DNA from: Streblomastix strix
Lineage: Eukaryota
DNA length: 49,791 bases
Direction: 5' to 3'
Assembly (NCBI GenBank): GCA_008636045.1
Contig: SNRW01000008.1
Coordinates: forward strand, 1 to 49,791
The notes beneath the pieces are model-generated. The model ran no database searches, had not been told where the DNA came from, and saw only the letters and a program-made list of their open reading frames with translations. Made by a program: the position numbers and the translations under genes. Positions 8,127 to 39,620 of the stretch are shown piece by piece (position 1 is the first letter of the stretch; the number at the start of each line of letters is the position of its first letter).

Positions 8127-9250
8127 CCGATCAAACCTAAACTATTTTTGAAAAATAAAACTTTTGTGCATGCTGCCTTTTATCTGACAAATAATTAGCG
8201 TAAAAAACGATGTAAAATTCTAACCGAGAAAATTCAATGGTTGATTTTAGCATAAAAATTAGCCCACCGATCACCTCTCAACTATTTTTGAAAAATAAAA
8301 TAGTGACAGAAATTGCCTTTTTTATTTTTTATTTTTTTTAACAAGTTAATAAATAACCTTCTCTGATAAATAAATAATTGATAAAGAATCAGCTGGAGAT
8401 AAGATGAACCGAATTAAATGTTAAAAATATTATTAAAATTATGAACCAATTATAAATTGCGCCAGATACTTAATTAATGAGGAATCATTAATTGTATGGG
8501 ATTCAAAGTTAGATAGAGAAGTTAACCCTTAACCAAAGAAAAGCAGAAGTGGTAGACTCACAGGTAGATAAATTAAGTTGAACAACATTAAAGAAAAACG
8601 TTGTGACCTATCTTTTTTTATACTGCAGCTAAATATTTTATACCTAACGATGGCATCAATTATAATAAAATATGCCATTTAGATAGTGATATCGGGAATG
8701 ATTCATTTGATAATTTATTATGAATAGATTAATTTGATTATAATAGATACAACACAATCAAGTACTATCAAATAAAAACTAAAGATGAGAAGAAAGATAA
8801 AAATTTAACTGATATATTTATGTATAAGAATAGATTATTTGACAATTATGAAGTAGATTAAGCATAAAATGCGTGGTTTAATAATCATGATAATGATCTA
8901 TATATGTAGCTAAAATTAATGATAATAGTAAAATCTACTTCTATATTAACGTATATAAAAATAATAAGGTTGAATTTAAAATGTACTTTGAAACATTAAT
9001 TAATGAATTAAAGAATTGAAATTATTATTTTTAATAAATATTCATTCCATCTAAGAAATTTAAGTTTTCATATAAAGAGAAATATATATGGGTTAAAATT
9101 AGATACTTAAATTGATGTAAATTAACCTACCGATCAACTTTCAAATAATTCTGAAAAATAAAACAGAGGTGCAATCAGCCTTTTCACTGACCGAGAATTT
9201 AACTAAAAAATAAATAGTGGTGCAAGCTGCCTTCTCTTTGACCTGAAATT
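8127..9250 (+). repeat. Dispersed ~55-60 bp direct repeats (CCGATCA...TGAAAAATAAAA...GCCTT)
   Basis: Copies at ~8127, ~8267, ~9130 and a partial copy at ~9205; each pair lies upstream of an ORF. Confidence 0.7.
8404..9019 (+). pseudogene. NUMOD4/HNH_3-like endonuclease remnant
   Basis: YEPIINCARYLINEESLIVWDSK, then after a frameshift AKYFIPND...KICHLDSDIGNDSFDNLL* resembling the HNH_3 FIPN..H.D....N...NL.W pattern. Confidence 0.6.
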
Positions 9251-9368
9251 AATCATTATTATTTTCTGACATAATTAATGAGTCAGCTGAATTTCAGCTG
9301 ACCCCCACACTATTACTCTGAAGTATAATTACTTCAAAAAATTAATACACTTTTTTTATCATGTATAA

Positions 9369-9650
9369 ATGGAAATCAACTTCGGTGAAATCAACTTCGA
9401 TGAAATTAACTGAGTTATATAAATCTAACGAATGGATTAAATCCTATAATTTCATCAAATAAAAATACTAAGGTGAAAATTCAAAAGACTAATTATACGA
9501 GCAAAATGATAGATGTTCTAAAGGTTTACGCGGGTGATATGTTAATCCTAACTTAGTAATACCCATCGCAATTAAGTTATCCATCGATCGTGCTCTCAAT
9601 ATTGTTCAATTGAAGTATTAAATTTATCTAGCCATATTGTTGAATTTGTA
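9369..9650 (+). pseudogene. KilA-N domain remnant
   Basis: KGLRG*YVNPNLVIPIAIKLSIDRALNI resembles the KilA-N G.YVHP.L...IA.W.S...A motif. Confidence 0.6.
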
Positions 9651-9699
9651 AATTTAAATTAATTACCGATAAATAAAATTTGATTTATTTTTGTTCATA

Positions 9700-10520
9700 A
9701 ATGGAATTGTTCATTGCGGATAAAGTTTATCTGTTAATTAATAAATTATTTATTAAATAAATTATTAATAATATTAATTATCAGTTTAATAAACACTTTA
9801 ATTTGAATGATTAATATAAAGGTAAATCTATTGAGTAATCGTATAAATTATACGTAGAAGAATATAATACTAAAAATATATAGAAGAAAAATAAAAATTG
9901 CTTGAGGTTAGCCGACTTCATTAATATTATCTTAATGAAAAAATTAAGAATTATAAATTGAAGCCACAAGTGACATATTAGCGTCCTTACTTTTCTCCTC
10001 AATTAGGATCATTGGAGATGGATATAGCTTTTTTAAAACAGTTATTTTTTTTATTTTATTATCAACGTTAATACAAAGTATCAAATTATATATCCTATTC
10101 GTATAAATGAAAAATAATCACTAATCCCGGACCTAGAGTAGCTAATATAATCTTAATATGTGACAATTATTAGATCAGATTGCGAAGCAGCATTAGGAAG
10201 TAAATAAATTAGGGCTCTATTAACTAAATATAATATATAATATTTTTAAAACAAATCCCTATTCACGAATAAAAATAGAGTGGTAGATAGTGTGATAAGA
10301 AATATGAGAAATAAATTAATAAATTATCAAGTAAATAATCAAATTCTATAATAAGTAACTGATGAGTTCAGTAATACAAAATACAGTGCTTTTAGCAATA
10401 AATATACACCTTTATAAGTAAATGAATCACGTGATTTAGAAGGTAGCTACATACGCCAATAGTAATAAGAAGTAGAAGGTAAAATTAATTTATAAAGAAA
10501 AGATTAGTTAGTAAATATAA
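9700..10520 (+). pseudogene. RVE integrase remnant (Polinton type)
   Basis: RPYFSPQLGSLEMDI, INVNTKY, IRSDCE, RVVDSVIRNMR, SAFSNKYTP; collinear with the integrase at 26303-27506. Confidence 0.8.
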
Positions 10521-11039
10521 ATATGTATTAAATATAATAAAAAATTTAATTTTTTTTAATTAAAAATTTTTAATAAATTTAATTTAAAAAATTTTTTATT
10601 TAAATTTTTATTATTTAAATTGTTTTTTAAAAAAAACTTTAAGTTATTTCATTATTTATTATTGTGATTTAAATTAATAAATAATATAAATCTTTAAAAA
10701 ATTTTTGTTAGAAATATTCAGTTACGGAACTCGTACAATCGTTAAAGCTAAAAAGCATGCTACCATCGGAACTGATCCAATGTACCAACTAAAATTAAGA
10801 GTAGACCTAAGAAATATTATACTATTGAAGAAGCTAAATAGCGAGCTAATGAATGGAGATTGTACTTCAAATATCGTTATAGAGACAAGGTTAAGTAATT
10901 TAAGAAAGATGTAACAACGAAATAATTAGATATATCCAAAATACTTAATAAATATATATTTTAATAAGAGGACATTAATAATATTATGATTATACTCGAA
11001 AATTATATAAATAGGCTTTAATATTTATCTTAAAATTGA

Positions 11040-12252
11040 TTTAATTTCTTTTTCATAAATATTTTTGGTCTTTTAATGTAATATTTATTTTATTGGTTGA
11101 TATATAATTTTTCTTTTTCTGAAGCATATTTAACATTGATCATTTATCTAATTTTATTTTTGCTTATCGAAGTATAATTTATCATCCGTTAGTGCACCAT
11201 TAAAATTTTCTTTCCGGAAAGTACTATTAGTTAAAATAAGCGTTAATTGGTTATTGACCCCAGCCAGTCGCACCAACTAGATATTTAAATCCCTTATTTG
11301 CCTCAGCAATTTGTTCTGAAATTTCTTTACTGATTTTATCTTTGAATTGCCCTTATTACATTTGATCTTACATATATTGACTCGTTTATTGATTTTTTGA
11401 TGAGTCAACCAGTCTATTAATCATTTTATTAATAATATCGTTAACTTATTAAGTTGGCTATTAATCGTCAATTCTCTCTCATTATTCTCCATCAGTATAT
11501 TAAAGTATTTACGCAGCTTGTTATAAGGCTTCATAGCTCAGCTATTTAAATTCCATATCAGGCAAAATAGGTAATTCTGTACGACCAATACGATTAATAG
11601 CTTCATCTAATCTCTCATTAATATAAAAATATTATATTTTCTCTATTCTATTTAATATTATTTTTGGAGGTAATGCTAACTCAATATCGCTGAATCTGAG
11701 ATCTTTCACACTTTCATTTCATTCTATTTATTTCTAAATTTTATTCTATACTTCACGAATCATTAATTAATTTATTTCTTATTATTCTTATTGCGCTTAT
11801 TTTAACTCATCATTTTACACTATTTTTTTTATAAAATGCGGGTCGTTAATTATAATTCGCAAAATATGGCCATAAATAGTTCTTATAAGTTCAGCTTAGG
11901 TTGACCTATAAATTAAATTTTGAATAGCTCTAAGTCCTTCTTAATTTATTTTTTCTTTAATTTTAAGATCTACTGCAATAAATTAATTCATTAGCTCTTA
12001 ATACTTCGTATCATTACTTATTTTTTTCAGGAGATGTAATTTTATCTGGGAGTTTCTAAAATAATTGTAATAATTTTCGAACTTATTTAGCACCTTGTTC
12101 GGTAAATTAATTTTATGCTGTTGAAACCATTTTTAATTAAATTACATTACCAATTATACATCATAATCTTTTCGTCTTTTAGAACTGATAGTTGAAGAAG
12201 ATGAAGATGCATCGATTTCTTTACTTTTATTCTTATTACTTTGTTTGCTCAT
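11040..12252 (-). pseudogene. Hypothetical protein, degenerate
   Basis: MSKQSNKNKSKEIDASSSSTISS... long coding-like stretch under TAR=Gln; no family recognised; 3' end approximate. Confidence 0.35.
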
Positions 12253-13359: not shown

Positions 13360-13933
13360 AGAAAGGTGTTCTGGTATCGTTTATGGCAGGATTTATTAAT
13401 GGAAGATTTGAGTGGTTTAGTAGTGAAAAAGGTGAGAAAGTTACAAGAAAAAATTAATTAATATGTGGAAATATGGTGTTAAAATTTGTGTTTATGAATT
13501 GGCAATTAGGTGAGCCGTCAGGCTGTGAGCCTCGAGGGGGTATGAGTCGTTAGGAAATGATTTTTGAAATGTGACCCCCTGGTGTATAAGTTATGCATTC
13601 TAAAAATCAAAAAGGGATAAGATTGATAAATTTAAAAGTTTGGGATTTTGCATTGATTTGGAGTTAATTTGAGTTATTGTAGGTAATTTATTGACAAATT
13701 TACATATAACTCCGCCAGAACTCCCTTCTCTCTAAAATACGGTGTTTATATTGGAAATTTGAGATAGAAGTTAGTCTTGTGATAGATTTGATGAGATTTA
13801 CACCTCGAGACTTGAGGTGATTGACAGTGGGTAAAATATAATAAAATACCGTATAAGCCGCCACGCCTCGAGCCTCAAGGGGTCTTGAGTCGGTCTAAAA
13901 AAAATATTTTGTAATCTGTCCCCTTTTTCATTT
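13360..13933 (+). repeat. Left terminal inverted repeat
   Basis: Reverse complement of 38441-39013, e.g. GGCAGGATTTATTAATGGAAGATTTGAGTGG; outer half nearly identical, inner half more diverged. Confidence 0.95.
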
Positions 13934-14959: not shown

Positions 14960-15850
14960 CATAGTATTGTAGTGTAAGAATTATTCATGAATAATGTGGT
15001 AAAGTTTTGATTCTTCGAAACATTACATGCGCATTAAAGTAGAAGAATTTCTTGATTATTCTAATTTTTTAAATTAATTATTATGTGTCGCCATTAAATC
15101 AGATCCAGAAATTGAGTTAAGATTCATCTTAAGATAATATTATAAGCAACTTAAGATGGAATAACTTAAAGACGTAATTATGCTAGCATAAGATGTTAGT
15201 GGATAAGAATCATCGTTGAAACTTATGTAATTCCTCAATGACCGATGATGATTTAAAGCTTTATGGTTTATTCTTGTTACAAATCGTTTATATCATCCTT
15301 AGGATTGTAAATCATCTGTTCTGACTCTGATTCCGACTATGTTTAATGGAAAACATCTATCCCTAGTGGTTGCTGTTCATTCTAAGTTAATTCTCTGAAC
15401 AATATGCCCATTAATCTCACTTATTATCTGAATCAAGACTATCTTGAAATAGATCATAACTTAACATCATCTCCTGGACGAAAATTTAATGAATAATCAG
15501 TTAACAATGATAGAACTTAAAAATTATCTGCTATTACTGAGATTCCTAAGATAATATTTAATTTCAACTCAGCATTCACTAATAAATATATCGATGAAAC
15601 TAAATCTCAGGGTTATTTGTATTCACCATTATTGATGTACATAATATAAACTTAGATAAATTCGTTCATTGATAGTTAAGAATATTACTTCAGAACAATT
15701 ATCATAAGTAATCGTAGTGTAATATGCTTTAACAATGCTGTGAACGAGCATACTTTGAAGCTATCAGATGGTAAATTTTCTCCTAATATTAATGAAAGTA
15801 TTGATATTGAATCATCTGCAATTAAATTCATAAATCTTTTTTTTGATTAA
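14960..15850 (+). pseudogene. Conserved element gene of unknown function (possible minor capsid)
   Basis: Collinear similarity to 42540-43380 (-), e.g. TGTTTAATGGAAAAC and DSQEYYFR/DTNEQYFR. The function is a guess. Confidence 0.4.
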
Positions 15851-17131
15851 TTTCTTTATAAGTATTTCATGCTTAGCAATGGATGTTATTATCGACTAAT
15901 TGGTATAATTCGATTATATTCGCCCACAACTAATAACTATTTAACTTCAATTGAGTCATTTATAACAATTTCATAAGCACAGTCTGTAAAAATAAGGCAT
16001 TTACACGGAAAATAGTATAATATTAATGATAATTCTTAAATTTAAAAGAATCTTAAGTAACCAATGAATGTTTAATAAATAACCATGAAATCCATCATAA
16101 ACGGCATAAATCTATTCCCTATTAGAATTATATCTTCATTATCTGGTTTAAATTCTGAAGATTAGGTGTAAATATACACTGTTGTCAATCGATAATAGTA
16201 TTAAGGGTAATATATTCCTGATGTTCTTTCATAATTTTTTATTTATTGAATAATTATTTCTGAAAAATATAAGATTATGGTATCCATAACGCATCATCTT
16301 GTCACTAAATTTATATGAGTAATTAACTTGTGCTTTAGATTTTTATGATAGATTATAAGAAAACGGTGCTAATCCTACTGAAAATAATATATCATCTGTT
16401 AAATTCATTGATCTTGAAACTTGGTATTTAAAACTAAATATGATAACTAGAGTTAAGAATGTGATACTTCTGTTTTATGCACTTTCGTGGGTAATTTCTA
16501 ATAGTATCTTCAGATGTTGATCATATCTATCTCAAACTAATTGTAAAGAATTATATTTTAAAAAATTAGCGGATAAGGTTTCTCAAATGTATGTTATAAG
16601 TAAAATCTTATTGATGCACCTGTTTTATTGGGTTAGAATATGTTATCTTAATAATGTATGATATGTTAAAGTAAATGTGTAATATTTACTATATTTGATA
16701 ATTATGGCAGAAAAATATCATTGCAAATCATGGATATGTACAACAACTTGTTACTGGAAATTTAGACTTAATGATGTCTTTTTCGACGGCGAAAGTGGGG
16801 TCAGACTGAATTAATTTATTTTTAGACGGCTCGATGCGCCGATCCATCGGCTTAAATTCGCAGGAAGTAAACCTTGAGACACGCGGCTTAGAGGGTCACA
16901 TTTGAAGTAATTTTAGACCGACTCAGCATATCTCGAGGCTTGCGGCTTAATATTAATAAAATTGGATCATTATTAATTATCAGATCCACTAATGATATTC
17001 ATTATTTTTCCATTTCCTTTCCTAATTTGCAAAAATAAATTAACATACGTTTTACGTATACTGAATCGTTTCACGATTTGGCGACGTGATTAGCAGTCTC
17101 TCATCCACATCTTACTGCACAAGCATTAAAC

Positions 17132-18918
17132 TCATCCTAAGTCTACCATCGTTCCACCTACTTCACCTATGATTTCGAAGTTTAAAATTTATGGATAAGG
17201 AGCATCATCGAATGTAAATCAAATGATTGCATCACAGAGATAATGCATTTACGGCGTTATCTATGCATTAGTTGGTTAAGGATAAGGTCTTGTTGCGATA
17301 AATTATATAAGATTATTTTATTCATCTTAGATCCCAGCGACTGCATCAAGTATCAATGAATTATCTATGATACCTGGAGTTAAATACTCTTATAAAGTGA
17401 CTTGAATATTAGTTCTTGCTCTCAATTTAGATGAGTTACATCCGCATATGAATGAATCATCAGTTGCCATCTTCTATGCCAGCATAAATTTATGAGGATA
17501 ATATATTTTTACTGCTTTATTTTTAACGTATAGCGTAGTATTATAGAGTATATTCTCTTTATCTTCCAAACCAGCACCTATATAACTATAATAATTTCCA
17601 TTGGAGTCATATATAGTTTGAATTTGGAAATTCAATGAATGATTCAAATCAGATGATGCTGAAACAAGATCTTACTCAACAAAACACTCGAACATCTATC
17701 CAGTAACCATGGGATTTAACGATACATATTCTTATGGGATAAGATATCGTTGATCAATTTCCAAATTGAACTTCTAAAATTACACTGGTAACATCCATAT
17801 TTGGATATTATTTCAATGCAAATGTAATAAACAGCGCTTTTACGTTAGAATATGACTTTATACTTTGCATAGAACCAACATTTTCAGAAAATCCACGAAA
17901 TTGGAAGTTAATTGATTGTGTACGTATAATTTACGTAGGAGAATTCAATATTTTTTGATCTCTTATCATATCAATGATTGATTCTTCATTTTACATGTTG
18001 AAACACAAATTATTAATATCTAACTTAGTAAATCTTGAATCCTTAATTTAACTAATTGAGTTTGATGGCCTTCTTTCATCCGGAGCTTTTCCTTACATAT
18101 TGTCAAGTCTTATCGAAAATGCATTATATTTAGTTTCATCTGTACGTAGCAAGAAAACTATATCAGGTTTTTCTGGTGTAATCATTTAATAAACTAGATG
18201 ACTATTGATTATAGTATCAGACTTTTTTTAACTATACAACCTTCAGATCGAATAAGAAATCTTAGGTCCATAATTATAAAAATAATGATGCATAATTACG
18301 TGTTAACACTGGAAATGAATTGAAAATAGGATTTAACTAATTTAAATCAAGTACTCCAGCAATTGTTATTAGATATGGAATTAAATAATTAAAGCTTCCA
18401 GCAGCAAAAGCTTCAACTGATATATCTATGAAAACTCCACAATGTCTTCTTCCTCTAACTACTGTTTCTAATGGTGATACACTCACGGAATTATTAGTAT
18501 TTAAATCAGATAATGAATTTGCAGCTATCACAGCTTATTCTCTTGCATAATTTGATATCTCCCATAGTTTTGTATTATCTTTACTGATTGCTATTTATTA
18601 GAATGGGCCACAAGCAGTTGAGAATCCAAGACAGAACTTAATATGTTCATCATCACCAATTGGCATTTAATTTGCTTCAGCTACAATTTTCATTGTACGA
18701 ACCCAATCTGCTTACATATTAGCTAATTCATTGAAATTTACTCTAACTCTAGCTGTTGCTATTGCAGCAATAAGCGTAACTAATCCTGGCACTAAATTTG
18801 GTTATAATGCCAATCACTCAAGGAATTGTTCTTTGCCAGTTAACTTAACATAATTATACCATTGAACATGTTGCATTACCTCTTACATCTAATGGAGCTC
18901 TTGTAAATCTCTATCCAT
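17132..18918 (-). pseudogene. Putative double jelly-roll major capsid protein
   Basis: ~595 codons; FCLGFSTACGPFQQIAI...NYAREQA, GVLDLNQLNPIFNSFPVLT...LFLQL, C-terminal TPQMHYLCDAII.FTFD resemble protist Polinton MCPs; internal TGA and frameshift. Confidence 0.7.
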
Positions 18919-19182
18919 CACTTATAAGTTAATTAATAAATTAATCAAAGAATTTTTATCTACTTATACTAAAACTTTATAGATGAATCGGTGCTTATCT
19001 TTGCACTTCTTACATTGCAGAATACGTTGAAACATATTCAGAATATTATACTTTTGCTAACTTTTATATGTAATCGTTCGCTGAGAAACTCATATTGCGT
19101 ACGGTTTTTTTATAATTTAAAATAATGTATACGTTTTATTATTCAAACAATCGCTCAAACAAGAAAACATACTATAATTATC

Positions 19183-19389
19183 ATGGGATTCTTTTCTGGA
19201 TTGAAGAATTTTGACTCAAAATTATTAGGCTGAATTAAGAAAGTTGCAGGTTGGGTTGCTCCCACGCTTCATAAAGTGATGGCGACTCTTAGCGGACCAG
19301 TAAACATGTTACATCCAGATGCTGCGTAGATAATAGGTACGATTGGTAATATTGCAGGCGGAATAGAAAGGCATTTGAATAAACGTTGA
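19183..19389 (+). pseudogene. Small amphipathic peptide, adenovirus pVI-like N-terminus
   Basis: MGFFSGLKNFDSKLLG*IKKVAGWVAPTLHKVMATLSGPVNMLHPDAAQIIGTIGNIAGGIERHLNKR*; one internal TGA at 19231. Confidence 0.55.
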
Positions 19390-20148
19390 TAAAAACAATT
19401 GAATTACTTATTATTTTCTTATTCTGAATATAATGATGGAGGAATTGTACTAATTTGAATAATCTTTTGGCAAAACTCATAATGCTTCAGATTATGATGA
19501 GTTTAAAATATTTGAAGCACTTGTTGACAATAAGGAATTAGATGATGAGCAAAAATAGTTTTATGAATAAAAAATAAGAAAAAAATAATTGATTTGGCAT
19601 AATTACAAAGGAAACTTAATAAGTCATTGGTTATCTTCACTATTTAGATACGTTATGCTAAGTTAATTGATAATATGCACAAAACAGCTGATTATCATTA
19701 TCCATGACAAATCAATTATATAACTATTTCTCTTCATCACTTGCTTCAGATATAACATATTTCATTATTTATTATGGCTATTGATTCATATCCATCTTTT
19801 TCTTGATTTAATTGTATTAACTTGCGTAAAATTTATTATTTTCTCTATATATTTTATTCTTATAATCTTCATCTACGAATTTTTTCATTTGCTGCAATTT
19901 GCATCATAGATTTGTGAATTATTAATTCTTATTAATCCTTTAAACAATACATGCTATTATTCTGATTAATCTTTGATCAACTGAGTTTGCAGTGTTTCTA
20001 TTGTTGTTTTAATTAGATCTTTATTTTCATAATTTGATTTGAAGAGCTCATTAAAGAGCTAATTTAATGGTTTTGACATGTTTTATTACCCAATTTTCAG
20101 TTGAAACAAACAAAGTTTGCAAAACTAAATTCAACAATGAAGTTGTTT

Positions 20149-21500
20149 TCATAGTATTCTACCATTGAAAGATAATGTGTTTCTATCAGCACTGATTTGT
20201 AATCCTCTAGTATTATCACCAGCTTAAGATGCCATTGCGAATATTAAACCATAAGGGTCATTTATAGCAGTACTTGATGGTGTAAATATTGTCCATTATC
20301 CTTCAATAACGCCAGAGTTAGATGTTCTACTACATCCTAACTAAATCGATGAATTAGCTGTATTTGGAGCTGATCTGGATATTCTCAAACCATCATCATA
20401 ACTAGTTGCTGTAGGATTTAATTAAATATTACCTGAAGTAACACATGCAAATGTTTTTTTACCTGAAATTGATTAATCATTAACAACATCAACGAATCCA
20501 TTACCATTAAATGTTAATGTGTTTTCATCTGCGGATATCTATAAGCCTTTATTAGCCTAAAATTTTTAACCTGATTTTGATATGATAAAGCATAGTGGAT
20601 TTATATTAGTATCCACTGATGTTCCCATAATCCATTAGTTATCAATAAACCCACTATTTGAATACGGATCACAACCAAATTAAATATTACTCCATTAGTT
20701 GTTTATTGATCTACTTATTTGTCTCCCTTCGTTATATATACCATCAACTGTTGGATTTACTTATATTAATTTTTTGATTTTTTTTTCAGTAATCGTTTAA
20801 TCAGTAGCTATATCAACTACACCATTAATATCTTTAGTATCACCATTTGCACTTAATATTTCCGTAGCTAATCCTCCTGTTTTAATGAATTTAAGTGCAA
20901 TTAAGTTCCCATCGTAAGTTAATTATTAAGGATGAATATGATCATGTCTTGAATAATATGCAGAAGTACCATTATTTCGAATTCCATTAACTGCAGGTAC
21001 AATTTACGCTTTAGTTTAAACATTAATAGGATGAAAATGATCAATTCTAGCATATGCAGCAACAGTACCATATGATCCATCTACTGAGTCACTAACTGGA
21101 ATAGTATCTGCAGTATAAATTGGATATTAATGATCAGATCTAGCACAAGTGTTATCTGAGCCGATATTACCAACCGAAGTATCTTTACTTGGCAATACAA
21201 TAGATACTTATAGTGGATGCTTATGATCTCCTCTAGAATATTCATTTGAAATTCCTGCAACTCCAGTTCCACTATCAGCTAATGGTGTAGCATCACTTGC
21301 AGGAGTGACTTAATCAGGAACTGTATCTCCACTGTTGTACTAATTCTAATCATACATCCATACAGTTCCACTTTCAGCAGAGAATGCAAAATCACCATTG
21401 GCAGAGTTTTCTAATTATTTTATATCAGTGTTCAATAAATTGTATCCTTTAAAATGTATTTATCTATTAAGTTCTTCAATAGTTACATTAATTTATTATT
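20149..21500 (-). pseudogene. Phage tail-fibre-like protein
   Basis: Four R.DH.[HY]P repeats, KFIKTGGLATEILSANGDTK, and two tandem repeats ending GLQISAD.NTL.FNG; start uncertain (may extend to ~21890). Confidence 0.7.
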
Positions 21501-21915
21501 ATAATCCACAATATCTTATGTTGCAGTCCCAAATGTTTAATATATTACATTCACTTTTTATTTTAATGGAGAAATTTTTGCAATGAAACCATTATTTAAT
21601 AAATTTAATATTTTCAATGTCATTACATCATTTGTTTTCAGTTTCATTGCAAAATTTTTAGAATTATCTATTGGTATATATATTAATGAGTTTTTGTCAT
21701 CAATTGTCAAATAATATTCAGTTCCCGATAATTAACTACATGAACTTGATGATTAACTTTGATATTATAACAAATATTGGAAATTTGATTAAATTAATGA
21801 ACGAATCACTAATATCTATAGTTAACTCAATGTTTTTGCCAACGTCATATTTGAATATATAAAAATAAATATAATCATACCAATTATCATTGATTCTTTA
21901 AAACTTTTTATTTAC

Positions 21916-22946
21916 TCAACCACTTATTAAGCACTATGAATTCATACTTGTTAAAGTACCATATATTAACATAAATTCATCAAAAACTAGATTCTAAATA
22001 GAATTTACTTCATAAGGTTGCTTTAAATCACTTTCGCTAAGATCAACACCAAAACTTATAACATGTGATAATATACTTGCAATTTTGAACAAGTAACTTG
22101 GCCATTAAGCAACAAAAAACACAGTATTTTTGCAATGTCTACAGTCAGATACTAAATGAGTTAGTGTCTTAACTAATTCTGATAAAAATCTTTAAATATC
22201 AGCATTGCTTCCAATATCATCAAAAATTAGCGGCGAATTCAGCAGAGAATTATGAAATAGTATGGGTATTTTTATAATTTTTAACTCCGTATCTCATTCA
22301 TCTTAAGAAATCTGAATTTTTCTTTCGAAATACACATTATGAATGTTTGCTGGGACAGTAAACCTCATAATCATTGTCGGAACGTTGTATTTCGTTATCT
22401 TATCAAAATACTCTTATTCAAATATCTCAGCAATTCCTCTAGCATAATCCTTTAGTTTTTCCATTTATTTTTCGATAGACGCGGATGCAAGACGTGTTGG
22501 ATTCTCTTTGATTGGTTTATTTTGAATAATTCTTTCTTTCATTCTTTATATATATAATCTGATTTGTAAGATATGTTTAGTTCACGTAATTTCCAATAAG
22601 TATAGACTTCTTTTACCGAATACTTGATCTCATTAAATTACGGTTCGAAAGATATTACTTCCTCATATGTTATGTTGGTGAATATGATATTCTTCGAGTT
22701 ACGATTCAATGCCATAGTCCTATCAGCACTAAAGTTAGAGAAATATAAAATGAAAGGATTAATTTTTTATTTATATATTACAATTAGTTTGCTTATTTGT
22801 GTTGTTTTCCCTGAGCCAACTGCGCCAATAATATAATGATTCACAATGATTAAGAATAATGAATTTCTGGTTAATGATTTAGTTTTGAATTCATCTAATA
22901 TAGAATTATCGTCGAATGTAACTGATTATATCTCTTCTAATGTCAT
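21916..22946 (-). pseudogene. A32/FtsK-type genome packaging ATPase
   Basis: Walker A IIGAVGSGKTT (~22800-22830); Walker B LIFDDIG (~22210-22230); frameshifted. Confidence 0.85.
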
Positions 22947-23449
22947 GCAGGTTATCTGTTGCAGCAAGTTGCTTTGGTTAGTTGCCAAATAAATCTGTTG
23001 ATATTAATAATTAATTCTATATTTTATGGTGTTAACTTCATTGTTTCCGTAATTTCATTATCTATTCCTGAATAACTTACATAAATATTCTCATTAATAA
23101 AGTAATTATGGAGTTATTTTGATGCGATTCTAGTGACATTAAATTTAATCAACTAAATATTTCAATTCGTTTATCGTAGAAGAAACGAAAATAAAATTGA
23201 ACATTAGAAAATTCATAAGAAAAATAAGCTTATTTTCATTGAAGTAAGTATTAAAATGAATAAATAGAAGATTTCATTAAGGAAGCGATTGAAAAATAAG
23301 ATGAGGAACTCGCTAAGATGTCGAGATATATATTGCATTTGAAGTTGTTGAATCTTAAAACTTATACGAAGTCTGACAATAATGGAAATCATGATAATGG
23401 TAATTAAAATTGAAGTTGAGTAAAAAATTCAATTTATTTATTTGGAATT

Positions 23450-24340
23450 TCATACAACATTTTTGATAAAATAACTTACATTAATTACCACATTTAACGA
23501 AGATGGAATTGATATGAGTGAATTAGAATTATTAATAATTTATCCGTATTAATTGATTAAATAATCCAGATATTAACTAATATTAGCTGATGAAACTGCT
23601 AAATATTACATATATAGTGTACCAATAAATTAAAGAATAAAATTATCATCAACGGTTCCCATTATGAAAGGAATGCTAGTCGAACCACCTTGTGATACCC
23701 AACGAGGATATTCATTAATATGAACTATTTCGCTGCTATGCAAAACTAACGAACCTTAACTTAAACCACTTACATTATCAGTAACTTGAAATTATCTTCT
23801 TTTTGCATTTGATAGAAATATTACTTAACCATTGAATTTTATTTAACTACAATTTTTATCTAAATATTCCTCTATTTATATTTTAATAATCGTCGTCTTT
23901 ATATATTTAAAATGATGCATCACGTAGCCATGTTCCAGTACCTTCAAAATAAGAAGTAATTACCTAATTATATTCTAAAGTTGATACTCCACCAATTGGC
24001 TTACAAACATTAGCACCTAAATAAATACACTTGGTTCTTAAACAAACCCTCTAGTTATTCTTAGCCCTGCTTATTTTGTAACAATTAATAAAGAAGTTGG
24101 CTATAACGTAAAATCTGAAAAAGCATATGATCTCTCTTTTATTATGAAATCGTCTATATCTGATTTATCTCCATTAACGAGTAATATTTATTTTTAAGTT
24201 TCATCAGTTTTTATAAATGAATTTGTAACTATAGGTTAAGTAAATGATTTGGTCTCTGTAATAGTTTAAGCTGTATCTTGTGTTACTAAACGTGATAAAT
24301 CAACTTATATTTTCTTAAAAAAATAACTAAAATAAGTAAA
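23450..24340 (-). pseudogene. Second short fibre-like structural protein
   Basis: LVTQDTAQTITETKSF...FIKTDETQKQILLVNGD fibre-like motif; homologous to 43450-44680 (+). Confidence 0.5.
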
Positions 24341-24359
24341 ATATTTTATAATTTCATTA

Positions 24360-25301
24360 TCAACTTATTAAATTATTTATTTTCACAACTTCTATAGTGA
24401 TTCTATTTCTTATTATTATTTCTTCATCTTCTCATAATCTGATTTCGTTTATTAAAGTTCTTCTTCAGATGGATCCTCCAAATCGCTTGAAATTTGTTCT
24501 TCAGAATATGCAAAGCTCGCCGGCAACGAAGTATCTTACATATCCTTTTAACAAAAATAAACTGATTTCATAGCGAAATATTGATCAAAAATCATCAATA
24601 CCAATGTCGAATTCAAGCTAATCAGATAATCTGACAAAGTATTTGTTCAAATGATATAACTTCTCAATACTATTCCATAACGCACTATCAATGTTAGAAA
24701 TAGAGACATTCTTGATGAGAACATCATTTATTCTTAAAATCTCTTTCTTCTTAAATTTTATCGAAGTGAAACTATTATATTTCATCAATTGTTCTTCCAT
24801 AATAATCTCAAAATCTTTCACTTCTTCTTATGTTGTTAATGCCCAGACTTCTATATTGTTAATGGAGTTAAATCTGAAATCTTCGCCTTTCTTATGAGAA
24901 TCGACGCTTCTCCAGATGCAATCAATGATGAAATTTTATACTTCTAAGGTAAAATTGGATTAATATATATCTTTTACAACTCATTCTGGCTCAATTAAAG
25001 CAGTTTCTCGTAAAATTTCTTTAATTTTATGAATATTATATGCTTTTCTCCTTGATCTTTCTGTTTAGATTCCTCGTTGCAATTCTTTCTAATAGATGCT
25101 TAAATCTCTGCTTAGTAATGGTGTCTGAATCGAAGACTATATTTATAATGCTGGAATTTGTACTGCCTTTTTAAATCCATTTGTAATAGTTTCATCAATT
25201 GCTTATAATCTGGCTTTATCCTCCTCAGATAATTCTTTCTTAACAGTATTCACATGTTAATTTTTATGAACTCTTATTTGATTTATTTATATTGTTGCCA
25301 T
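24360..25301 (-). pseudogene. Hypothetical element protein(s)
   Basis: ELSEEDKARLQAI matches ELIDEDKNRLQLI at 47859+; includes the track ORF MKDFEIIMEE. Confidence 0.45.
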
Positions 25302-26302: not shown

Positions 26303-27506
26303 TCACAATTTAAAATAATCTTTATATTTAGTATCTAATAGACATATATCTTTTGCAACTAATTTGCAATATTATTCAAGTAATTCTACTATTTTTAAAT
26401 CAGACTATGATTTAAGTAATTTCACCATTACATTTCCATTAGATTATTTAATAAATTCTGCTAATTCATTGAAATTTCTTCTTTACATAACGAAGGAATC
26501 ACCAGTTTTTGTATAATCAAGATGTATCAAAAGAATAATTCCAGGTTAAAACGATAAAAGTCCTTTGTTTTACTATTATATCTTAATATCAAACAGTTTA
26601 TTCTTTTATTATCTTTTGTATTAACCTTCAATATCATCATTATCATTAGCTTATTTTGGGTAATATTTGTTGTCATATGCAGAATGAGGAATCTAATTGT
26701 ACATTTATACCATCTGTTACATCAAATCATTATCTGCAAACTTCTCAGAATCATTGCCAAATCCATTGCGAATAGTCATGAACACTGAATCAACAACTCT
26801 GCTTCGATTAGTGAATTTTGAGTCGGTAAAGAATGAAGTAAAGTTATTCTCTTAACTGAATGTTTTCAATATATTTCCGCTGAATCCTTTCTCGTCATCG
26901 CCTCTAATGTTAGTGAAATGATTATTCTTAACTAATTTTTACAACGCATTCATGATTTAACCTGTAGATTTATCTCTCAAAGGGAAACAACGAGATATTT
27001 TGTATTAATATTAATGCAAAAAAAATATATTTAATTTACACGAACAATATGTTTATCCATTAAGGAAACTAAATCAAATTACCATGATCCAAATATTGGA
27101 GAGAAATAAGGACGATTCAACTTAAATAATTGTTTAATATAATAATCAGGTGGAATTTCATGTATTTTTTGTGAATGTTTTCCATGAAATTTCTTAAAAT
27201 GTTCAATTTTTGATTTGAAAGGGAATTTTAGAGGTTTGCTTGGTTATTCTAATTCTTGGTTTTAACTGATTACCGCGGAAAATTACGAAGTATTTGCACA
27301 TTTGATTAATCATGCTTCAAATCATATCACATATATAATTTCTCAAGCTATTTTTCATTAAATTTTCCGTAACTATGCGTACTGGTTGCTGCTTCGCAGA
27401 GATTTTATTTATTCAGATTCTTAATAAATTCTTAGAACTTCATTTAATTCATGTTACGATAAGCTGTATATTAAATCCATTAATTTGTGTCTTCATAATG
27501 CGCCAT
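26303..27506 (-). pseudogene. RVE (DDE) integrase
   Basis: RPYFSPIFGSWQFDLV, CININTKYL, IRGDDEKGF, RVVDSVFMTIR, MYNQIPHSAY; frameshifted. Confidence 0.9.
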
Positions 27507-30418: not shown

Positions 30419-33400
30419 ACTACTTTAAGGAATTCAATTTTTAAATAAAAGTGGGTTAGTTTTATATATAATAATAGTACTATATTTAAAAATATAGATA
30501 ACTAATAAAAATTTAAATAAAACTTGCAAATATTCCATATTCATGGAGATTATTCAAAAATAAATTAATGCTTATTTGAAATTTTTTTTTCAATCAAGAT
30601 ATAACTAGACAAATTATCTAAAAAATAGAATTATTATTATTTTAATTAAATAAATGCAAACACTTTTAATACTCATTTTTGCATTATTATCAATAAATTA
30701 TTACAATTTAGCAAATATTAATGCTCTGTGTATTAAAAGTATTACCAACATTAAATTTAATAAATAAATAATATAAATTAAATATATTTAATTTAAATTA
30801 TTAATTAATTCATTTATGTTATATTAATCTTATTATTTTATTAAACATTTGTAAATATAATCATCACTTTAACAGTTAATTTATCAAAACTTTTAACAGT
30901 TCATAATTTAAGAATTATATTTATTTATTAAATAACTATTTAATGAGCAATAAAAGCTTCATAATTATTACTTAATTTGCGTTTGAATTTATTTTAATAA
31001 AAAGTCTTTTTTTTGTTATTTCTACACAATCATGTTTTAAAATTGTTACTAATTTATGATATAAATAAAAACTTATTCATTTTTTCATAAAATCTAAATA
31101 AATTAATATCATATAGAAAAAATAAAAAAATTGAAAAAAATAAATGTTAATCGTAACTTGATAATTATTTATTTATAAATTTGAAAAATAAAAAAAATAT
31201 AAATTGAATGATAGAAAAAGTAGAAAACATGTAAAATATTTAATATAAAATGAAATACTTCAGGTAAAACATAAATTTAATTTCTTTGAAATAGATATTT
31301 AAAGAAAATGTAATAATAATATCTCTAAGAATTTGTTATGAGATCTACTCTATTAATGAAGATTACCTTTCAATACTTCAAGCATAAATCCTGTCAATTC
31401 TTTGATATGTTACTTTTGGAACATGATTTCCATTGTTTCACTCGCCTCAATAAGACGTCCTTCAGGATTTTGAACAAGTATGAGAGCAAATTATTCAGCC
31501 CATTCTCCTTTAACTTGACAAAGACCTCGAAATATGTCTCCATATGGTGCACGATATCCTGTTTGTTTACAGTATGCAATCAGTTTACCTAATTCACAAA
31601 GTTCTGCATATGTTTATACTGCTTTCTCAAGTGCACCACAAGATAAATATGCAGATAATGCGAAGTTCAAGTCAATGTTTCGAAGGAAACTACCAAAATG
31701 GTTCTGATACAGTGATCTTCCCATCTCTTAACCATCTTTCTGCCATGTCTTTATGTCATTATGGTTCAAATGGTCTGAATTACTCCTACGATTCTTATTC
31801 ATTCATTCGAGTTAGTTCAAATAACACAGTAAGATATTACATTTATGGTGGTGCTTCTCCTCCAATTGGTAATGCAGTCTTGAATCTTAGGATCGTTTGA
31901 GGTGTTATTAATACTTCTACAGGTTACAATAGCTGCCATTTTAGCCGCTTCAACATAATTCTATGCTAAGAAATTAGCTTCAAATTACTAAATAAATAAG
32001 TTTTCACATCCACTCAGCTTTGGACGACCTGTTATTCTAACTGCAAGTGGAACATTCTACAAATTCTATGTGATGTATGATACAATACCACGTTCATCAA
32101 CTTCAATCTAAAGTACTTATTCTTGTACATTCACTCCAATCAATCAATCTTCTATATGTTCACTAACAGATGTGAATATAAGAGATGTTGATATTTTAGA
32201 CATAACTACAAGAGTAGCTGTTCCATTCTCAAATGCTGATAGAATACCCATAGCAGATATTAGCAATATAAGTCCATATCTTTCTGAATAATCAATTGCA
32301 ACAGAGAAATCATTTGGATCAGAATAAATGACATCAGCTGATGCACGCAGTGCCGTCACTCCGGCTGCAATTGGACTAACTTCATTCATAAATAACTTAC
32401 TTCCAGCTGCAATATAGAATGATACATATTATGTATTCTTCTTCTCTCCATTATTGATCTACATACTTCTAATTAATTTCCCAATTATTTGGCTCATTGG
32501 TGATGCAAATAAAGACATCATACTCGTTTCTTATCTACTCTCAAGTTACTGAAATTCAATCCTGCAAGTTATGAAAGATAAATAAAAAGAATTTGAAGAT
32601 TTAACTAAATTTTAAATTTTCATTCATATATATTTGATGATAACACAAGTATAAATGATTTTTCATCAATTCATTTCAAATATTCAATGTTTTCTGTTAT
32701 CATTTTGGATTTTAACCTAGCGAGGAGGTCAAGATCATATATTTGAAATAATTATTTGAATATTTAAAAGAAAATTAATAATAAATTGAGTTTAGTTAAT
32801 GAAATAAATATCAAAAAACCACTATAATAAAGCAGATATTTAATTTCGGGTGTTGGATGATAATTTAAGTGAGTCAAAGTTTTGAACGTAATATCGTATG
32901 CTTCAATAATTGTGTAATTCTAGTTTATAATTATTTAAAAACTATACTAATATGAGAATTAATGTGGACAATTAATAGAATTAAAAAATTTAACAAATAT
33001 TATCAGAAAAAATAAAAAAATAAAATAAAAAAATTAAAATTCTCTTTTTTAATCAATATATATTAATAATTATTTAAATTTATGTTTGAATAAAAAATTA
33101 AATAATGTAAAAAGATATTCAATATTAAATATTTTGTTTGCCTATCACATAAAATGAGTACTTTAATTTCTGTATAGTTTTAGCTCACGATATGATTATT
33201 TATGAAGTTATTTATATGTAAAATAAATATAAATCTCTATATTTAATTAAAATATTAATTTAAATACTGAAATTAATATTCGTTTATTGATCAATTTGCA
33301 AAATATTTCTTTTCTTAATATTCTATTTCATTAAAATATAAAGCTGTTCTAAAATAGTTACTTATAATTTTAGTATAATTATAAAAAAATTTTAAATGTA

Positions 33401-33581: not shown

Positions 33582-35090
33582 CCTCAGATAGAACAAATTT
33601 TAACTCCTAATAACTTCTCAACTCCGATAATATACATGAGATGTTGATTTCCATCTACTTCATTAAGAAGAAGAATATTATAATCGCGTGCTGGTTAAGT
33701 TTCATTAGGAAAGTTAGCGAATAATTAGTATTCACAATGTGATTTAGCCGATTAATTGCCGTAAAGAATTTCGATATTCTTATCAAATTATTAACAATTA
33801 ATATTGATATTGAATTTCTAAGCAACTTTCAGTGAATCATCTCAGTTAAATCCTGAATATTTTTTAAGAAATTCATGTTAATCTTCCTTATCGACATTGT
33901 AAAAATCGAATAATAAACATTTGCCCTTAGCAATTCTTGAATATCGATTAATTTCAACACCTTTTTAATCAGGCATAGTTATGCATGTTAGATTATACCA
34001 GAAACAAGTATTATAATCATCATCGCAGTGAATATATTTTATGATGTTCTTCATATTCTTATGTATTGCAATGAGTTCATCCACATTTTTGCCCGGAAAT
34101 GGTAGTCTATAAGATATAATTTACATAAAAAATATGACATCCATAAGTTCTTTAGTATCCAGAAGTTATTTTCTAAAAGTTATTTTTTTACCGTTGTTTT
34201 CATCTTAGAATCGATATTTCAATTAAGATATTGTCTTGTTCCTTTTTTACATAGGAACATCATATTCATCTAGAATGAATTCACTTCTTTAAATTGCAGT
34301 ACCAAAATCAAAATCACACTTGAATGATCTTCCATTTTCATGCGTATAGACTCTTTCGATGAATAAGCCACAATCTTCTGATGAGGTGATGTGATTGTTG
34401 AAAAATTCAACTGTTACAGTAGTATGCTGACTCCCATCAGCATAATTTATGGATTCATCAGCATAATTAGCTCAATTATCTGCGATTACTTAAGATAGTA
34501 TATCAAATCTTGTTGATTTTGTTAGAAAAATGAATTCAGGATTCGTCTAAGAGAAATCATAGATCTTTGAATTATTATAATAATGAATCATCTTACGAAT
34601 TTCTTATCTGTTTCTTATTAGTATTTCACGTTCTTAAGGGTCCAAACTTGATTCAAAGCGTTAGAATCGTGCTTATAGTTATTCTTATTCCATCATTTCA
34701 ATGGAAAATTCTTATTCCAATCGTTATTCAAGATCTCTAAATTCCCTTTTGCGTTAATATTTTTATCATGCTTCTGCTATTTTCTATTTTTTAGTAGTGA
34801 AATTTGCATATGATTATTTATATTATTGTTTTCTTTACGCTAGTTGTTTCTTTTCGAAATCTTTTGGCAAAGGTTTTGCATTTTTTTCATATTCCAGTTT
34901 TGGGTAAATTCTTCGGGTTTTAATTATGGTGGAGGATGATTCTTACTTTACTTACGTGGAAGAGGTTGTTTTCGTTGGATAACAATATTAAGTTTTGCTG
35001 GTTTTTACTATCTATTTTGCTTTTATTTATGAAAATCTTTTGATAACGATTTTGCATATATTTTCTTTCTGGCTTTTGGTTTAAAACCAA
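33582..35090 (-). pseudogene. N-terminal part of pPolB (basic region, OTU-like domain, start of CxxC)
   Basis: DDDYNTCFWYNL ... NINI ... QHLMYIIGVEKLLGVKICSI*; joins in frame to 30418 when the insert is removed. Confidence 0.65.
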
Positions 35091-35388: not shown

Positions 35389-38384
35389 ATGAAGTCTGCA
35401 ACAACGTTGTCTGCACATAATAGTTTGCATTTCACTCCAATCAAAGAAATTTATGAGTAAGATTCAGAAAATCAAAGAACACTAAAGTGGTTTAAAAAGA
35501 ACATATATGTATTACAATAGAAAAAACTTACCGTTGACTTTTTTAAACCATGTACAGCGTCAGACTAACTTATGATTGAAGTAAGTTGTAAATACTATAT
35601 TGCAGATAAATCCGTAAATGTGTATAGATATGAATGAGATCCAATAAAAAAGGTTTAGAAAGAGAAACAGATGAACTCAGACCTAGATAAATTCTATGAC
35701 ATATTTCTGTAATTTCAACAAACACCCGAATATAATGAAATATTATAAATAGAAACGGAATAAGAAGAAGAATGTTGATTACGTAAAGCATTATCTGATC
35801 TAAAATATTAGAATGAATAGATGAATATTGAGGCAGATCCTGAAAAGAAGGCTTAGATGTGGATAGACTTGTGTCTTATGCAGCATGATTTAGAAATTTA
35901 TCCAGTAGAATAGAAACATGTAATTTAGTATATAATGAAATAAGAAACTGTACTTAATAAATTAAAGAGATAATCAGAATAAGAAAATAAATAAACAATT
36001 GACGAAGGAGTTTTAATTGATAAAATCAACTTATATTACTATAATAAGATTGATTATGGAAAAACAGGAAAAACTATAACAGGATCTTGCATAAACATTG
36101 CAAAATGTCCTTGATTATCAGTGGTTGATATCGATATTAATAAATCATTAAGTAATGAATAAAGAAAAATAATCAGAGATGAAATCTTAGAAAAATTTAA
36201 TAAATCAAAGTTAAATGTAAGCTTAACTGAGACTGTGCATGGTGGATTACTTCTATATTGTAATATTGGATTTGAATTATTAGAGTAGAATTCAATAGTT
36301 GAGAAGATATATAATAATAAATATGATGTTGATATATTTGCAAGTGTTTAAGCATATTTCAATAAAGATTCTAAGGGAAGTTTGAGAAATATTGCATAGC
36401 CTGGAACTATAATTAAGGATAAAGTGAAAGATGCAATAACAGGAAAATGGATGAATGAAACAGACGAGATATTCACATATAAAGATCTAAATGACATATA
36501 TAACAAAAAAGATTTAAGTACTTTACAAGAAGTATTTGAGATATTAGATTTTGATATGGATGTGAAATACCATAAAAAACCTGAAATTAATGAAACTTTT
36601 AAATGGACTATTGATATGACAAAAGAATAAGCAGAAATATTAATAAATAGATTAAATAGCTTAGTTGTATATAATAATGCAAGGAGATCTGTAACTGAAT
36701 CAACTTTATTTGCGTTATTTTCATCAATAATTGGTTTAAAAGGTATTACACGAGTTGATGATGAGTATATTGATATGAGTTATGATAAAATGAAGTTAAT
36801 TCCTGGGTTAACAGAGAAAGCAAGATCAAACTTTAATAGCACTCGATATAAGTTTTGCGACAAATCATTTTTACTGCATTATTTATAGAAAATCGTTAAG
36901 TTTACAAATGAAAAATATTACTAGGAAGTATTCTTACAAACATTACGACACAAAACTGTATATTCTGAATAAGAAACAAAATAATAAACAAGTTGTGCAT
37001 AAAGTAGCGAAAGTTATTAATCAGAAAACGAAAATATAGATATAACTAAAATCATAATAAATAAGATAAATTTAACTGATTAATTTGAGTTATGCAGGTA
37101 TCTAAAATAAGATATTAAAGAATGATTATTAAAATATTGAAGATATCTTATCTGACATGACTGAAATCATGAATTATATGCACTTAGATAGTGATTCATT
37201 CCTTTTCAAACAATACAATAATATAGAAATGAAATATTCTATTGAATGTTAGAACAATGTTAATGTTTAGGATATTCTTCATAAGATTCTTGCCTAATTT
37301 AATAGAAAGAAGTCAAAACCACTATGGTAATTACAACTAACATGCAATTAAGTATTCCTTATTAAATAAATATAGTTTAAAAGTGATGATCTAAATGGGT
37401 TTTCTATGTTTAAAGTTAGAGATTCCAATAAGTTGATAAAATTAATATGGAATTAATATAGCCATATCAAAATCATATAATAGAAGTGATTTCATCAGAA
37501 AAAATTGCTGTTTAAGAATATATACTGAATTGGTTCTCTGCAATTATATAGCATCCAGAGATATAAACTCGGGTGTCAATAATATTAAGAGGAAGCTAAT
37601 GCTGCAGAAAGAATACTTTTACTGTTGTAATGTCTGAGTTATAATCTGGTTATTCATTGAGAAATATAACATCGTTAACTTCAGTAACAGAATAATTCAA
37701 TTAAATGCATGAAAATAAGGTATTTCTAGTGTTAAATGAGCTGAAAACATTCAGTAACGCAGTTGATCATGAAGCTGATAAACTTAAATCATTAATAACT
37801 GATCCAACACTAGAAATCCGTACAAAATTTCTTAATTCCAATATCACAAAGAACATATTAAATTTCATATTAGATTCCAATCATTTAGATCCTGTTCATT
37901 TAGATTAATCAGATAAACGTTATTTAGTATTTAACGTAATTCTAATTATAGAAAGAACTTTGAATACTTTAATAAGCTATTCTAGCATATAAATTAAGAA
38001 GATTTTTATGAAAATCTCTTAATATTCTTTATGAATCGTGATATATCCAAGTTTGACAAGAGAATTATACCATTAACCGAAGCGAAAAAGGAAATTATAG
38101 ATATTTCATTAGCGGACATTGATATATTCTGTATTAAATACTTTAAATAGTCAAAAGATGGTTAGTTATGCGAAGATGCAGTATAATGCTCATAAGAGTT
38201 TATGAAACCAGGAATATTCAGATTATAAATCCATAAGAACTTTGAAACAGTAATTAGGTCAAATCATGGTAAGAAACTTAGATATAGCGTTATTAAATAA
38301 GATAAATTGGAATAGTAATAAGAGTATTTCTATTAACAAGATCCAGAATATTCGTAAGTAATCAAAGTTAACGAAGATGATTGA
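35389..38384 (+). pseudogene. Prim-pol primase fused to SF3/DUF5906-like helicase
   Basis: LSVVDIDI, TETVHGGLLLY, DVDIF; EYILNWF...IILRGSQCCRKN (decayed Walker A), LVLNEL, KLKSLITD, SN...DKRYLVF. Confidence 0.85.
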
Positions 38385-38440: not shown

Positions 38441-39013
38441 AAATGAAAAAGGGGACAGATTACAAAATATTTTTTTTAGACCGACTCAAGACTCCTCGAG
38501 GCTCGAGGCGTGACGAATTACTCAGTATTTCATTCTATTTTACCAACTATCAATCACTTCAAGTTTCGAGGTGTAAATCTCATCAAATCTATCACAAGAC
38601 TAACTTCTATCTCAAATTTCCAATATAAACACTGCATTTTTGAGAGAAGAGAGTTCTGGCTGAGTTTCATATAAATTTGTCAATAAATTTCCAACAATAA
38701 CTCAAATTAACTCCAAATAAACACAAAATCTCAAACTTTTACATTCTTCAATCTTACCCTTTTTGATTTTTAGAATGTATAACTCGTATACCAGGGGGTC
38801 ACATTTCAAAAATCATTTCCTAACAACTCATACCCCCTCGAGGCTCACAGCCTGACGGCTCACCTAATTGCCAATTCATAACCACAAATTTTAACACCAT
38901 ATTTCCACATATTAATTAATATTTTCTTGTAACTTTCTCACCTTTTTCACTACTAAACCACTCAAATCTTCCATTAATAAATCCTGCCATAAGCGACGCC
39001 AGAATTACCTTCT
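38441..39013 (-). repeat. Right terminal inverted repeat
   Basis: Reverse complement of 13360-13933. Confidence 0.95.
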
Positions 39014-39620
39014 TCTCATTTAATTTCAAATTAGATTCAGTAATTATATCAAACTCTTATGGATTTATTTTCGGCGAATTTTGAGGTTCAACACTAGTTA
39101 TATAATTATCAATCGTAGGACAATATAATTTTATTATCCCGATCGTCCGATAAGCAATTTATAATTATTGATTATATATGACGGACTATTTTGATTTCTG
39201 TATTGAAAAACTATAAAAAGTTTCCTTGGAATAAATTTTAATTAAAAATAGTACACTAATTAATTTTAACTATATTTAACATATTAAAAAAAATTACTGG
39301 AGGAGAAAAATAAAAAATATTTTTTTTATCAATTTTTTCTTTAACATAAAATTATTTAATATAATCGTTGATATATAATATAAATATTAATTTTAAACAA
39401 TTTTAAATAATATTAAACATTATAATTTATTTTTCAAAAAATTGTTACAAATTTTAAAAATAATCATTTATTTAACATATTCCTGATATAAAATAAAATT
39501 AATATATTAAAGACAATATTTATTGGTATTAATTGATTTTTATTTAATAATTTAATTTAAATTATTGATCTATCATCATAGATACTAAAAATAATATATT
39601 TAATTTGAAGTGTTACTGAA

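Follow-up and report, generated by a model that had tools for sequence, protein, structure and literature searches.

Fibres resembling those of phages have already been published for polinton-like viruses (PMC12220804; PMC8502044; Gezel-14T, bioRxiv 2022.07.28.501842), and the accessible text of the last of these reports the Ltf fibre of Gezel-14T in virions. The fibre gene that we describe from Streblomastix strix shares with them the plan of a modular phage-derived fibre in a capsid-bearing protist element. As far as the available parts of those sources describe the published fibres, it differs from them in having no Pfam match to an S74 chaperone, collagen, PTR, laminin G or gp36 domain, and in having an RxDHxH repeat, shuffled knobs and an oxymonad host with a reassigned genetic code. 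A small DNA virus of eukaryotes, the virophage DSLV2, likewise bears a trimeric fibre of phage origin, made of its tail proteins; according to PMC12724248, these are a heterotrimer of three ~200-aa gp37-like proteins with the collar domain PF07484, whereas our fibre, a trimer only by prediction, is one gene of ~550-600 aa, a predicted homotrimer, and has no collar match.

Two further systems are close in design. The R1 and R2 pyocin fibres (6CL5 and 6CL6) are trimers with HxH in the shaft and two tandem antiparallel knobs of five to six strands, features that are predicted for the window fibre; in the accessible parts of PMC6116203 they are described with one iron site, knobs placed before the shaft and a lectin-fold tip, whereas our protein has four repeats, and it showed no direct sequence match to them. 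With the gp37 and gp12 needles of T4 it shares a repeated, conserved HxH and, by prediction only, the homotrimer. The first-pass annotation had invoked this T4 likeness; the motif is indeed shared, but no sequence match of the window fibre to gp37, gp12 or PF07484 was found, so that it works like this type and is not classed as a member. As for T4 gp34, Gp34_trimer domains occur in phage relatives that carry the knob, and gp34 (5NXH) compares with the window knob at Z 3.6 (rmsd 4.8, 61 aligned).

Metamonada-group endogenous viral elements have been reported from the same genome, with 820 major capsid proteins (MCPs) and viral genes in translation table 6 (PMC10120064, in the portions available). 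Neither "fiber" nor "fibre" occurs in the main text of that paper, and "fiber" is absent from the examined portions of its supplement. We found no Pfam entry for the fibre family or the RxDHxH repeat and no description in the literature searched; subscription papers and parts of the supplements of PMC10120064 and PMC12220804 may hold one. Thus phage-like fibres on polinton-like viruses and the S. strix elements were already known, and what appears to be new is the RxDHxH fibre family with its shuffled knobs.

The stretch analysed here, hereafter the window, comprises 49,791 nucleotides of contig SNRW01000008.1. With good confidence, we read its fibre gene as a frameshifted copy of a likely attachment fibre belonging to an integrated Polinton/Maverick-type virus of S. 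strix, with modules that match phage proteins, a predicted homotrimeric form and probable metal binding, which would grip a cell-surface receptor. The features are collected in Table 1.

Table 1. Features of the fibre gene and of the element that surrounds it (window coordinates).
Feature	Position	Strand	Evidence or remark
Left inverted repeat, 565 nt	13369..13933	+	92.6% identical to right arm
MCP gene	17135..19093	-	~650 aa in four frame pieces (three frameshifts), 1 kb downstream of fibre
Small gene MGFFSGLKNF..., internal stop	19183..19390	+	Joined to fibre in 13/120 gene models
Fibre gene, whole extent	20149..21815	-	Frameshift near 21490-21510
Knob-like module 2	20152..20490	-	C-terminal in window copy
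Knob-like module 1 + QTI linker	20491..20832	-	38% identity over 102 columns to P0444
FIKTGG...LSANGD linker	20833..20910	-	Profile match to viral-contig L003 fibre-like protein, E 9e-10
Four ~31-aa RxDHxH shaft repeats	20920..21294	-	Phage relatives; part of trimer interface in model
Small beta "hinge" (HFKGY...WMYD...GD)	21313..21462	-	71% mean identity, 50 aligned rows
N-terminal segment + predicted coiled coil, likely capsid anchor	21463..21815	-	tblastn of relatives P0079/P0018/P0003; helix in model
Packaging-ATPase-like gene (Walker A GAVGSGKT), broken	21930..23054	-	Adjoins fibre; generic P-loop Pfam matches only
Second fibre-like ORF (QTITETKSF, FIKT..LLVNGD)	23453..24382	-	FIKGG profile E 1e-4; runs into penton candidate
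Integrase-like gene, decayed	26303..27309	-	Motif reading only
Protein-primed DNA polymerase-like gene + endonuclease VII-like segment	27658..30540	-	DFNS, GDTDS motifs
Probable N-terminal piece of polymerase-like gene	33845-34765		Same polymerase-like gene
Primase-helicase (D5-like), broken	35779..38384	+	DUF5906 E 1e-15; PHROG primase E 3e-13
Right inverted repeat	38441..39004	-	Pairs with left arm

Under table 11, ORFs are nearly absent from the window, and under table 6 there are many. The minus strand from 21621 to 20149 forms a single 490-residue open frame with a TGA stop under table 6 and is closed under table 11; the fibre gene is readable only with TAA and TAG as glutamine. These two codons make up 24 of its 26 glutamine codons (TAA alone, 19), which excludes bacterial contamination for this gene. 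A homologue search identified it as the S. strix protein EZS28_000117 and returned 449 relatives at E ≤0.001 among 4213 candidates, the best 120 of the 449 being all from S. strix. When the relatives named in Table 1 were aligned by tblastn, the true start fell at about 21815, in a different frame from that of the 490-residue ORF, and the deposited 527-aa model spans the frameshift by using a piece of the upstream ATPase frame. A contig of sequencing run X1 covers 21390-21741 with zero differences; since X1 is probably the source sample itself, this is not independent support.

The first-pass annotation had read the protein as a phage-style tail fibre with DHxHP repeats and a duplicated tip module, and the motifs and repeats that it named are in place (RGDHKHP at 21234, RSDHQYP at 21141, RIDHFHP at 21048, RHDHIHP at 20949, FIKTGG at 20889 and NGDTK at 20847), subject to three corrections. 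Successive repeats are 31, 31 and 33 residues apart, and the pattern R.DH.[HY]P matches four times; in 20,000 shuffles it matched 0.00005 times on average and once at most. All four repeats are present, but repeat 2 of the window copy is HxY, at a site that holds His in 103 of 110 aligned rows. As the annotation had advised, we compared repeat number among copies: 83 of 124 S. strix proteins have four repeats and 31 have three by the strict pattern. The two C-terminal modules share 47% identity over 113 aa and almost no similarity at the DNA level. The other two corrections concern the upstream start of the gene, in another frame, and the deposited model, both given above. The window protein as a whole had no match in Pfam, PHROGs, the PDB or INPHARED, and its C terminus none to the Peptidase_S74 domain of Pfam; an atlas search gave a best score of 0.84, which provides leads only. 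A family profile over the N-terminal segment matched only coiled coils in the PDB.

The inverted arms bound a 25.6-kb stretch, which lies within the 15-40 kb expected of a Maverick/Polinton-type element; the span may include later insertions. A search for the 6-bp target-site duplication of such elements gave nothing convincing, the sole candidate, ATTAAT, being a palindrome that lies within the arms. The MCP search gave 175 relatives, several of them named "Major capsid protein" by UniRef, and an intact relative scored 0.96 in the atlas to Capsid_N/Capsid_NCLDV clusters; no PDB sequence matched, and none of 37 IMG/VR candidates was a relative. Judged by these sequence relationships, the gene encodes a putative double jelly-roll major capsid protein, as expected of a Maverick/Polinton-type element. 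The remaining genes were assigned less directly: the integrase-like gene had no Pfam rve match, the polymerase-like gene no Pfam PolB match and a paralogue of the penton candidate no PDB match, and no adenain-like protease appeared among the window ORFs scanned. The second fibre-like ORF indicates that each element may hold two fibres or a fibre-penton fusion.

To measure linkage across the genome, 120 fibre and 120 MCP gene models were listed and neighbourhood was read from locus tags. On contigs of equal length, 15 of 120 fibre genes lay within two locus tags of an MCP gene (null mean 1.9, maximum 10), and this number is a floor, because neither list is complete and short contigs are frequent. 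The window fibre is not a host gene; it sits between the MCP and ATPase genes of a damaged element. Together with the TAA/TAG glutamine codons, these surroundings, including the inverted ends and the MCP, place it in a decayed Polinton/Maverick-type endogenous virus rather than in a phage of the sample. Since the fibre gene, the capsid gene and the ATPase gene are all broken, the copy in the window is most likely dead. The first-pass annotation had missed the virus as owner of the gene in place of the host, the broken state of the copy, the internal position of knobs and their shuffling.

Several further observations were made in the window. The small MGFFSGLKNF... gene looks amphipathic and lies here on the strand opposite to the fibre, yet the 13 joined gene models have it as an upstream fusion; it may resemble the membrane-active peptides VI/X of adenovirus. 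A decayed clathrin heavy-chain fragment (31260-32700, minus strand; E 2e-15 to PDB clathrin), of which additional pieces were detected, lies between the apparent halves of the polymerase gene and is either a captured host piece, a later insertion or an assembly join. A second partial element at 43387-45912 holds genes paralogous to the ATPase gene and to the second fibre-like/penton-candidate gene, with their orientation changed, and it crosses a 100-N gap with a 127-nt duplicated edge. The conserved motif GAGTCGGTCTAAAA occurs at 13887, 16911, 35140 and 38474, that is, in both inverted arms, downstream of the MCP gene and upstream of the primase gene, and is a possible promoter or origin. Two related host-like ORFs (IGIIRLYSPT / IGIIKLYCPT) lie inside the element (15245-16249, plus strand) and across the right arm (38799-39467, minus strand), and the latter blurs the true ends of the element. 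Farther out, we noted a hAT transposase remnant (3941-5732, minus strand; Dimer_Tnp_hAT E 3e-4) and a long E/K/R-rich coiled-coil host protein (3-3206, plus strand) whose C-terminal segment appears C2-like on visual inspection.

The shaft repeat proved to be widespread in phages. By family alignment, two siphovirus-type contigs were matched, with a gene of two repeats at 44% identity, and on contig L001 the repeat gene lies between tail genes and an endolysin gene. When the phage repeat region served as query, 157 proteins were found, and 116 of the best 120 of these were not named S. strix; among 102 non-Streblomastix repeat proteins, the commonest PHROG families were tail, tail-fibre, virion-structural or unnamed. 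Closer alignment confirmed the repeat in 200 of 435 candidate stretches of IMG/VR. A repeat ORF was present at 74 of 77 loci examined, with 1 to 12 repeats, and all were matched by the Streblomastix profile; the genes upstream (60 scanned) belong to head, portal, terminase, baseplate and tail families, and the head-gene neighbours mean that head fibres may be among the phage repeat proteins. The closest pair of repeat units, from P0129 and P0123, is identical at 26 of 30 positions, and for 345 of 439 units an outside unit is nearer than any sister unit, a count that is biased by pool size and is given no weight here. RxDHxH is thus a fibre repeat common in uncultured phages that lacks a Pfam model.

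Negative searches delimit this result. P0123 as a single query found none of eight candidates in viral contigs, P0129 and P0450 had no INPHARED match, and a scan of GTDB genomes confirmed the repeat in none of 94 candidates, for which reason no bacterial host is named. The hinge profile matched neither of two target sets (0/453 and 0/74) and the fibre N terminus had no match, in both cases among the phage proteins examined. Among contigs with the repeat, we also observed four neighbouring small genes with one RxDHxH unit each, near the N terminus in three of them (contig L006, 163 kb; 8216-11868, plus strand), where the single unit may be a docking or branching adaptor, and fibre-like ORFs with 12 and 10 repeats (L026, 2216-7159; L078, 7533-9986).

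Relatives outside S. strix were found for the C-terminal portions as well. The FIKTGG...ANGD linker profile matched one viral-contig fibre, that of L003, and its reversed control matched none. Pattern scans of viral and genome contigs for the knob gave no match; a profile search of the full library then succeeded. A two-sequence knob profile run against 1.84 billion representatives gave 126 matches, most of which resemble S. strix fibres, and of 15 long or divergent candidates 11 were recognised by the family profile, at scores of up to 57 bits against 1.0 bit for the reversed control; P0447, P0451, P0462 and P0465 failed it and were dropped. The 11 are long fibre-type proteins with up to three knob copies each, internal in the chain. 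Ten of them, when looked up, were unnamed and came from ENA or Logan, one also from NCBI; two contain an S74 chaperone and two a Gp34_trimer domain. P0444, whose alignment to window module 1 gives the best pairwise knob identity, also matches annotated long tail fibres. The proposal of the first-pass annotation that the fibre was taken from phages is thereby supported, in that the repeat, the linker and the C-terminal module all have relatives in phages. The transfer would have run from phages to the virus, a direction based on wide distribution in phages and narrow distribution in eukaryotes rather than on a rooted tree.

Among the 120 S. strix relatives, 53 have one knob, 55 have two, two have three and 10 have none; a further C-terminal cap occurs in 42 and an inserted domain in 57. 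Clustered at 55% identity, the 162 knobs of these gene models form 18 types, which occur in 39 arrangements, numbers that are upper bounds, because S. strix gene models include false joins and fragments, and some fibre architectures may be artefacts of false joins. The knob order of the window was seen once among 52 two-knob proteins and the reverse order eight times. The sequence clusters indicate that the knob region is shuffled, not simply duplicated in tandem, so that the duplication claimed for the tip holds for the presence of two related modules but not for their history. Likewise, the modules are terminal in the window protein, which ends at knob 2, but "tip" does not describe the phage fibres, where knobs are internal, or the relatives with a further cap. 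In the gene models the front half is conserved and the knob region is exchanged between element copies, a pattern expected of a host-range determinant.

What the knobs recognise bears on how the virus would reach its host. It is conceivable, if doubtful, that the fibre kept a bacterial target and that virions attach to the Bacteroidales rods coating Streblomastix, reaching the protist by engulfment or at rod junctions; this is a variant of our main reading and compatible with it. The closest outside relatives of the knob do lie in long fibres of phages. Moreover, the accessible portions of PMC2717939 describe numerous filamentous Bacteroidales ectosymbionts on Streblomastix and report ectosymbiont phagocytosis for many gut protists, and those of PMC12724248 offer a precedent in DSLV2, whose fibres are reported to bind Synechococcus LPS and for which hitchhiking was proposed. 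On the other hand, a knob identity of 38% allows retargeting to protist glycans.

The AlphaFold2 monomer has N-terminal helices and two beta-meanders, with the repeats at pLDDT below 50. Foldseek against BFVD gave tail proteins and S74-bearing fibres as top matches (best E 1e-4; knob alone, TM 0.50, E 1.5e-3), and against the PDB nothing at E 0.001 or better. VIA structural comparison gave no Z of 8 or more; the best solved chain (Z 5.8, rmsd 5.2, 87 aligned) is within the range for unrelated sheets, and the top rows, at Z 5.3-5.8, are phage trimeric spikes and baseplates. A homotrimer model of residues 140-415 in three copies with four zinc ions scored 0.64, against 0.00 for the best control, with pLDDT of at least 70 and agreement between runs in at least 89% of contacts. 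In calibration, 21 of 30 solved pairs attained the mark for this score, as against 0 of 23 single chains; the calibration set contained no ligands, and the modelling tool reports no metal geometry. The trimeric fibre that had been predicted passes in this model, and the pass may reflect memory of, or likeness to, solved fibres. Residues at the modelled interface include His170/172, His201/203, His234 and His265/267; the tightest inter-chain contacts fall at residues 338-408, and the knob is predicted to be a six-strand antiparallel sheet packed on the trimer axis.

Both histidines of the repeat are invariant in the 102 non-Streblomastix proteins and present in 100-108 of the 110 family rows. 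An alignment of P0123 to 6CL5, the R1 pyocin fibre, pairs its final repeat with the HxH there at E 0.005 and covers one repeat, and by offset calculation the aligned residues are His561/His563, which form a six-His iron site; in one homologue, a pyocin-type knob from the tandem series of five to six strands binds sialic acid (both from the available parts of PMC6116203). The conserved histidines and this weak bridge make metal binding by the repeats likely, with up to four probable sites, three of them complete in the window copy.

Alternatively, the histidines could hold no metal and RxDHxH could be a purely structural turn built on Arg-Asp salt bridges. At repeats 1, 2 and 4 the conservation of Arg and Asp almost equals that of His, and HxY is found in the window copy and, at each site, in 2-5 of 110 rows, as such a turn would allow. 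At repeat 3, however, Arg (85/110) and Asp (76/110) vary while the two His stay (107/110 and 102/110), and neither the invariant His pair of the outside proteins nor the alignment to the pyocin iron site is expected of a simple turn, which we regard as unlikely.

We think it very improbable that the protist has domesticated the fibre family as a library of adhesins or lectins, for instance to hold its ectosymbionts, with no virion role left. The hundreds of highly diverse copies would suit such a library, as would the distal 490 codons, which are open here whereas the MCP gene has three frameshifts; but the linkage of fibre to MCP genes, the frameshift at the start of the window gene and N termini with neither signal peptide nor membrane anchor (by eye) speak against it, and the many MCP genes of the genome (Table S1 of PMC10120064, as far as accessible) account for the copy number. 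That the gene came from a contaminating phage or bacterium, or arose as a chimera during amplification for a single-cell metagenome assembly, is scarcely credible and already largely refuted for the fibre gene, since, despite a mixed gut sample as source and a host clathrin fragment interrupting the element, TAA is the main glutamine codon, the best 120 relatives are all from S. strix, the inverted arms differ by 7.4%, unlike those of a fresh chimera, and the adjoining genes are those of eukaryotic viruses.

According to the above-described analysis, the attachment fibre of an integrated Polinton/Maverick-type virus would work as follows. The trimer would be fixed to the capsid by its N-terminal segment and its coiled coil. 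Each RxDHxH repeat would contribute two histidines per chain, six per trimer, around one axial ion, likely Fe2+ or Zn2+, and these ions would register and stiffen the shaft, as in the fibres of R-pyocins and T4. Beyond the FIKxGG and QTIxGxKTF linkers there would be one to three knobs of beta-sheet; their sheets are predicted to face the trimer axis, and their loops may bind surface sugars, with the receptor on the protist or on its bacterial coat. To our knowledge, no virion of this fibre family is known.

S. strix is a termite-gut symbiont, which fits the gut setting proposed by the first-pass annotation. The fibre family documents that a lineage of eukaryotic viruses shares modules closely with the fibres of gut phages, at identities of up to 26/30 in repeat units and 38% in knobs, and conserved fibres with diversified knobs further support the view that protist "Mavericks" spread as particles. 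A bolder proposal, which we put forward as a speculation with the odds against it, is that the knobs of Streblomastix viruses, a large and shuffled library of phage origin, have kept the ability to recognise bacterial surfaces, the Bacteroidales ectosymbiont coat serving as both landing pad and vehicle. If this were true, the host range of a eukaryotic virus would be set by the bacterial partners of its host. The fibre family is suited to testing whether binding to bacteria is the way in which eukaryotic viruses reach protists coated with them.
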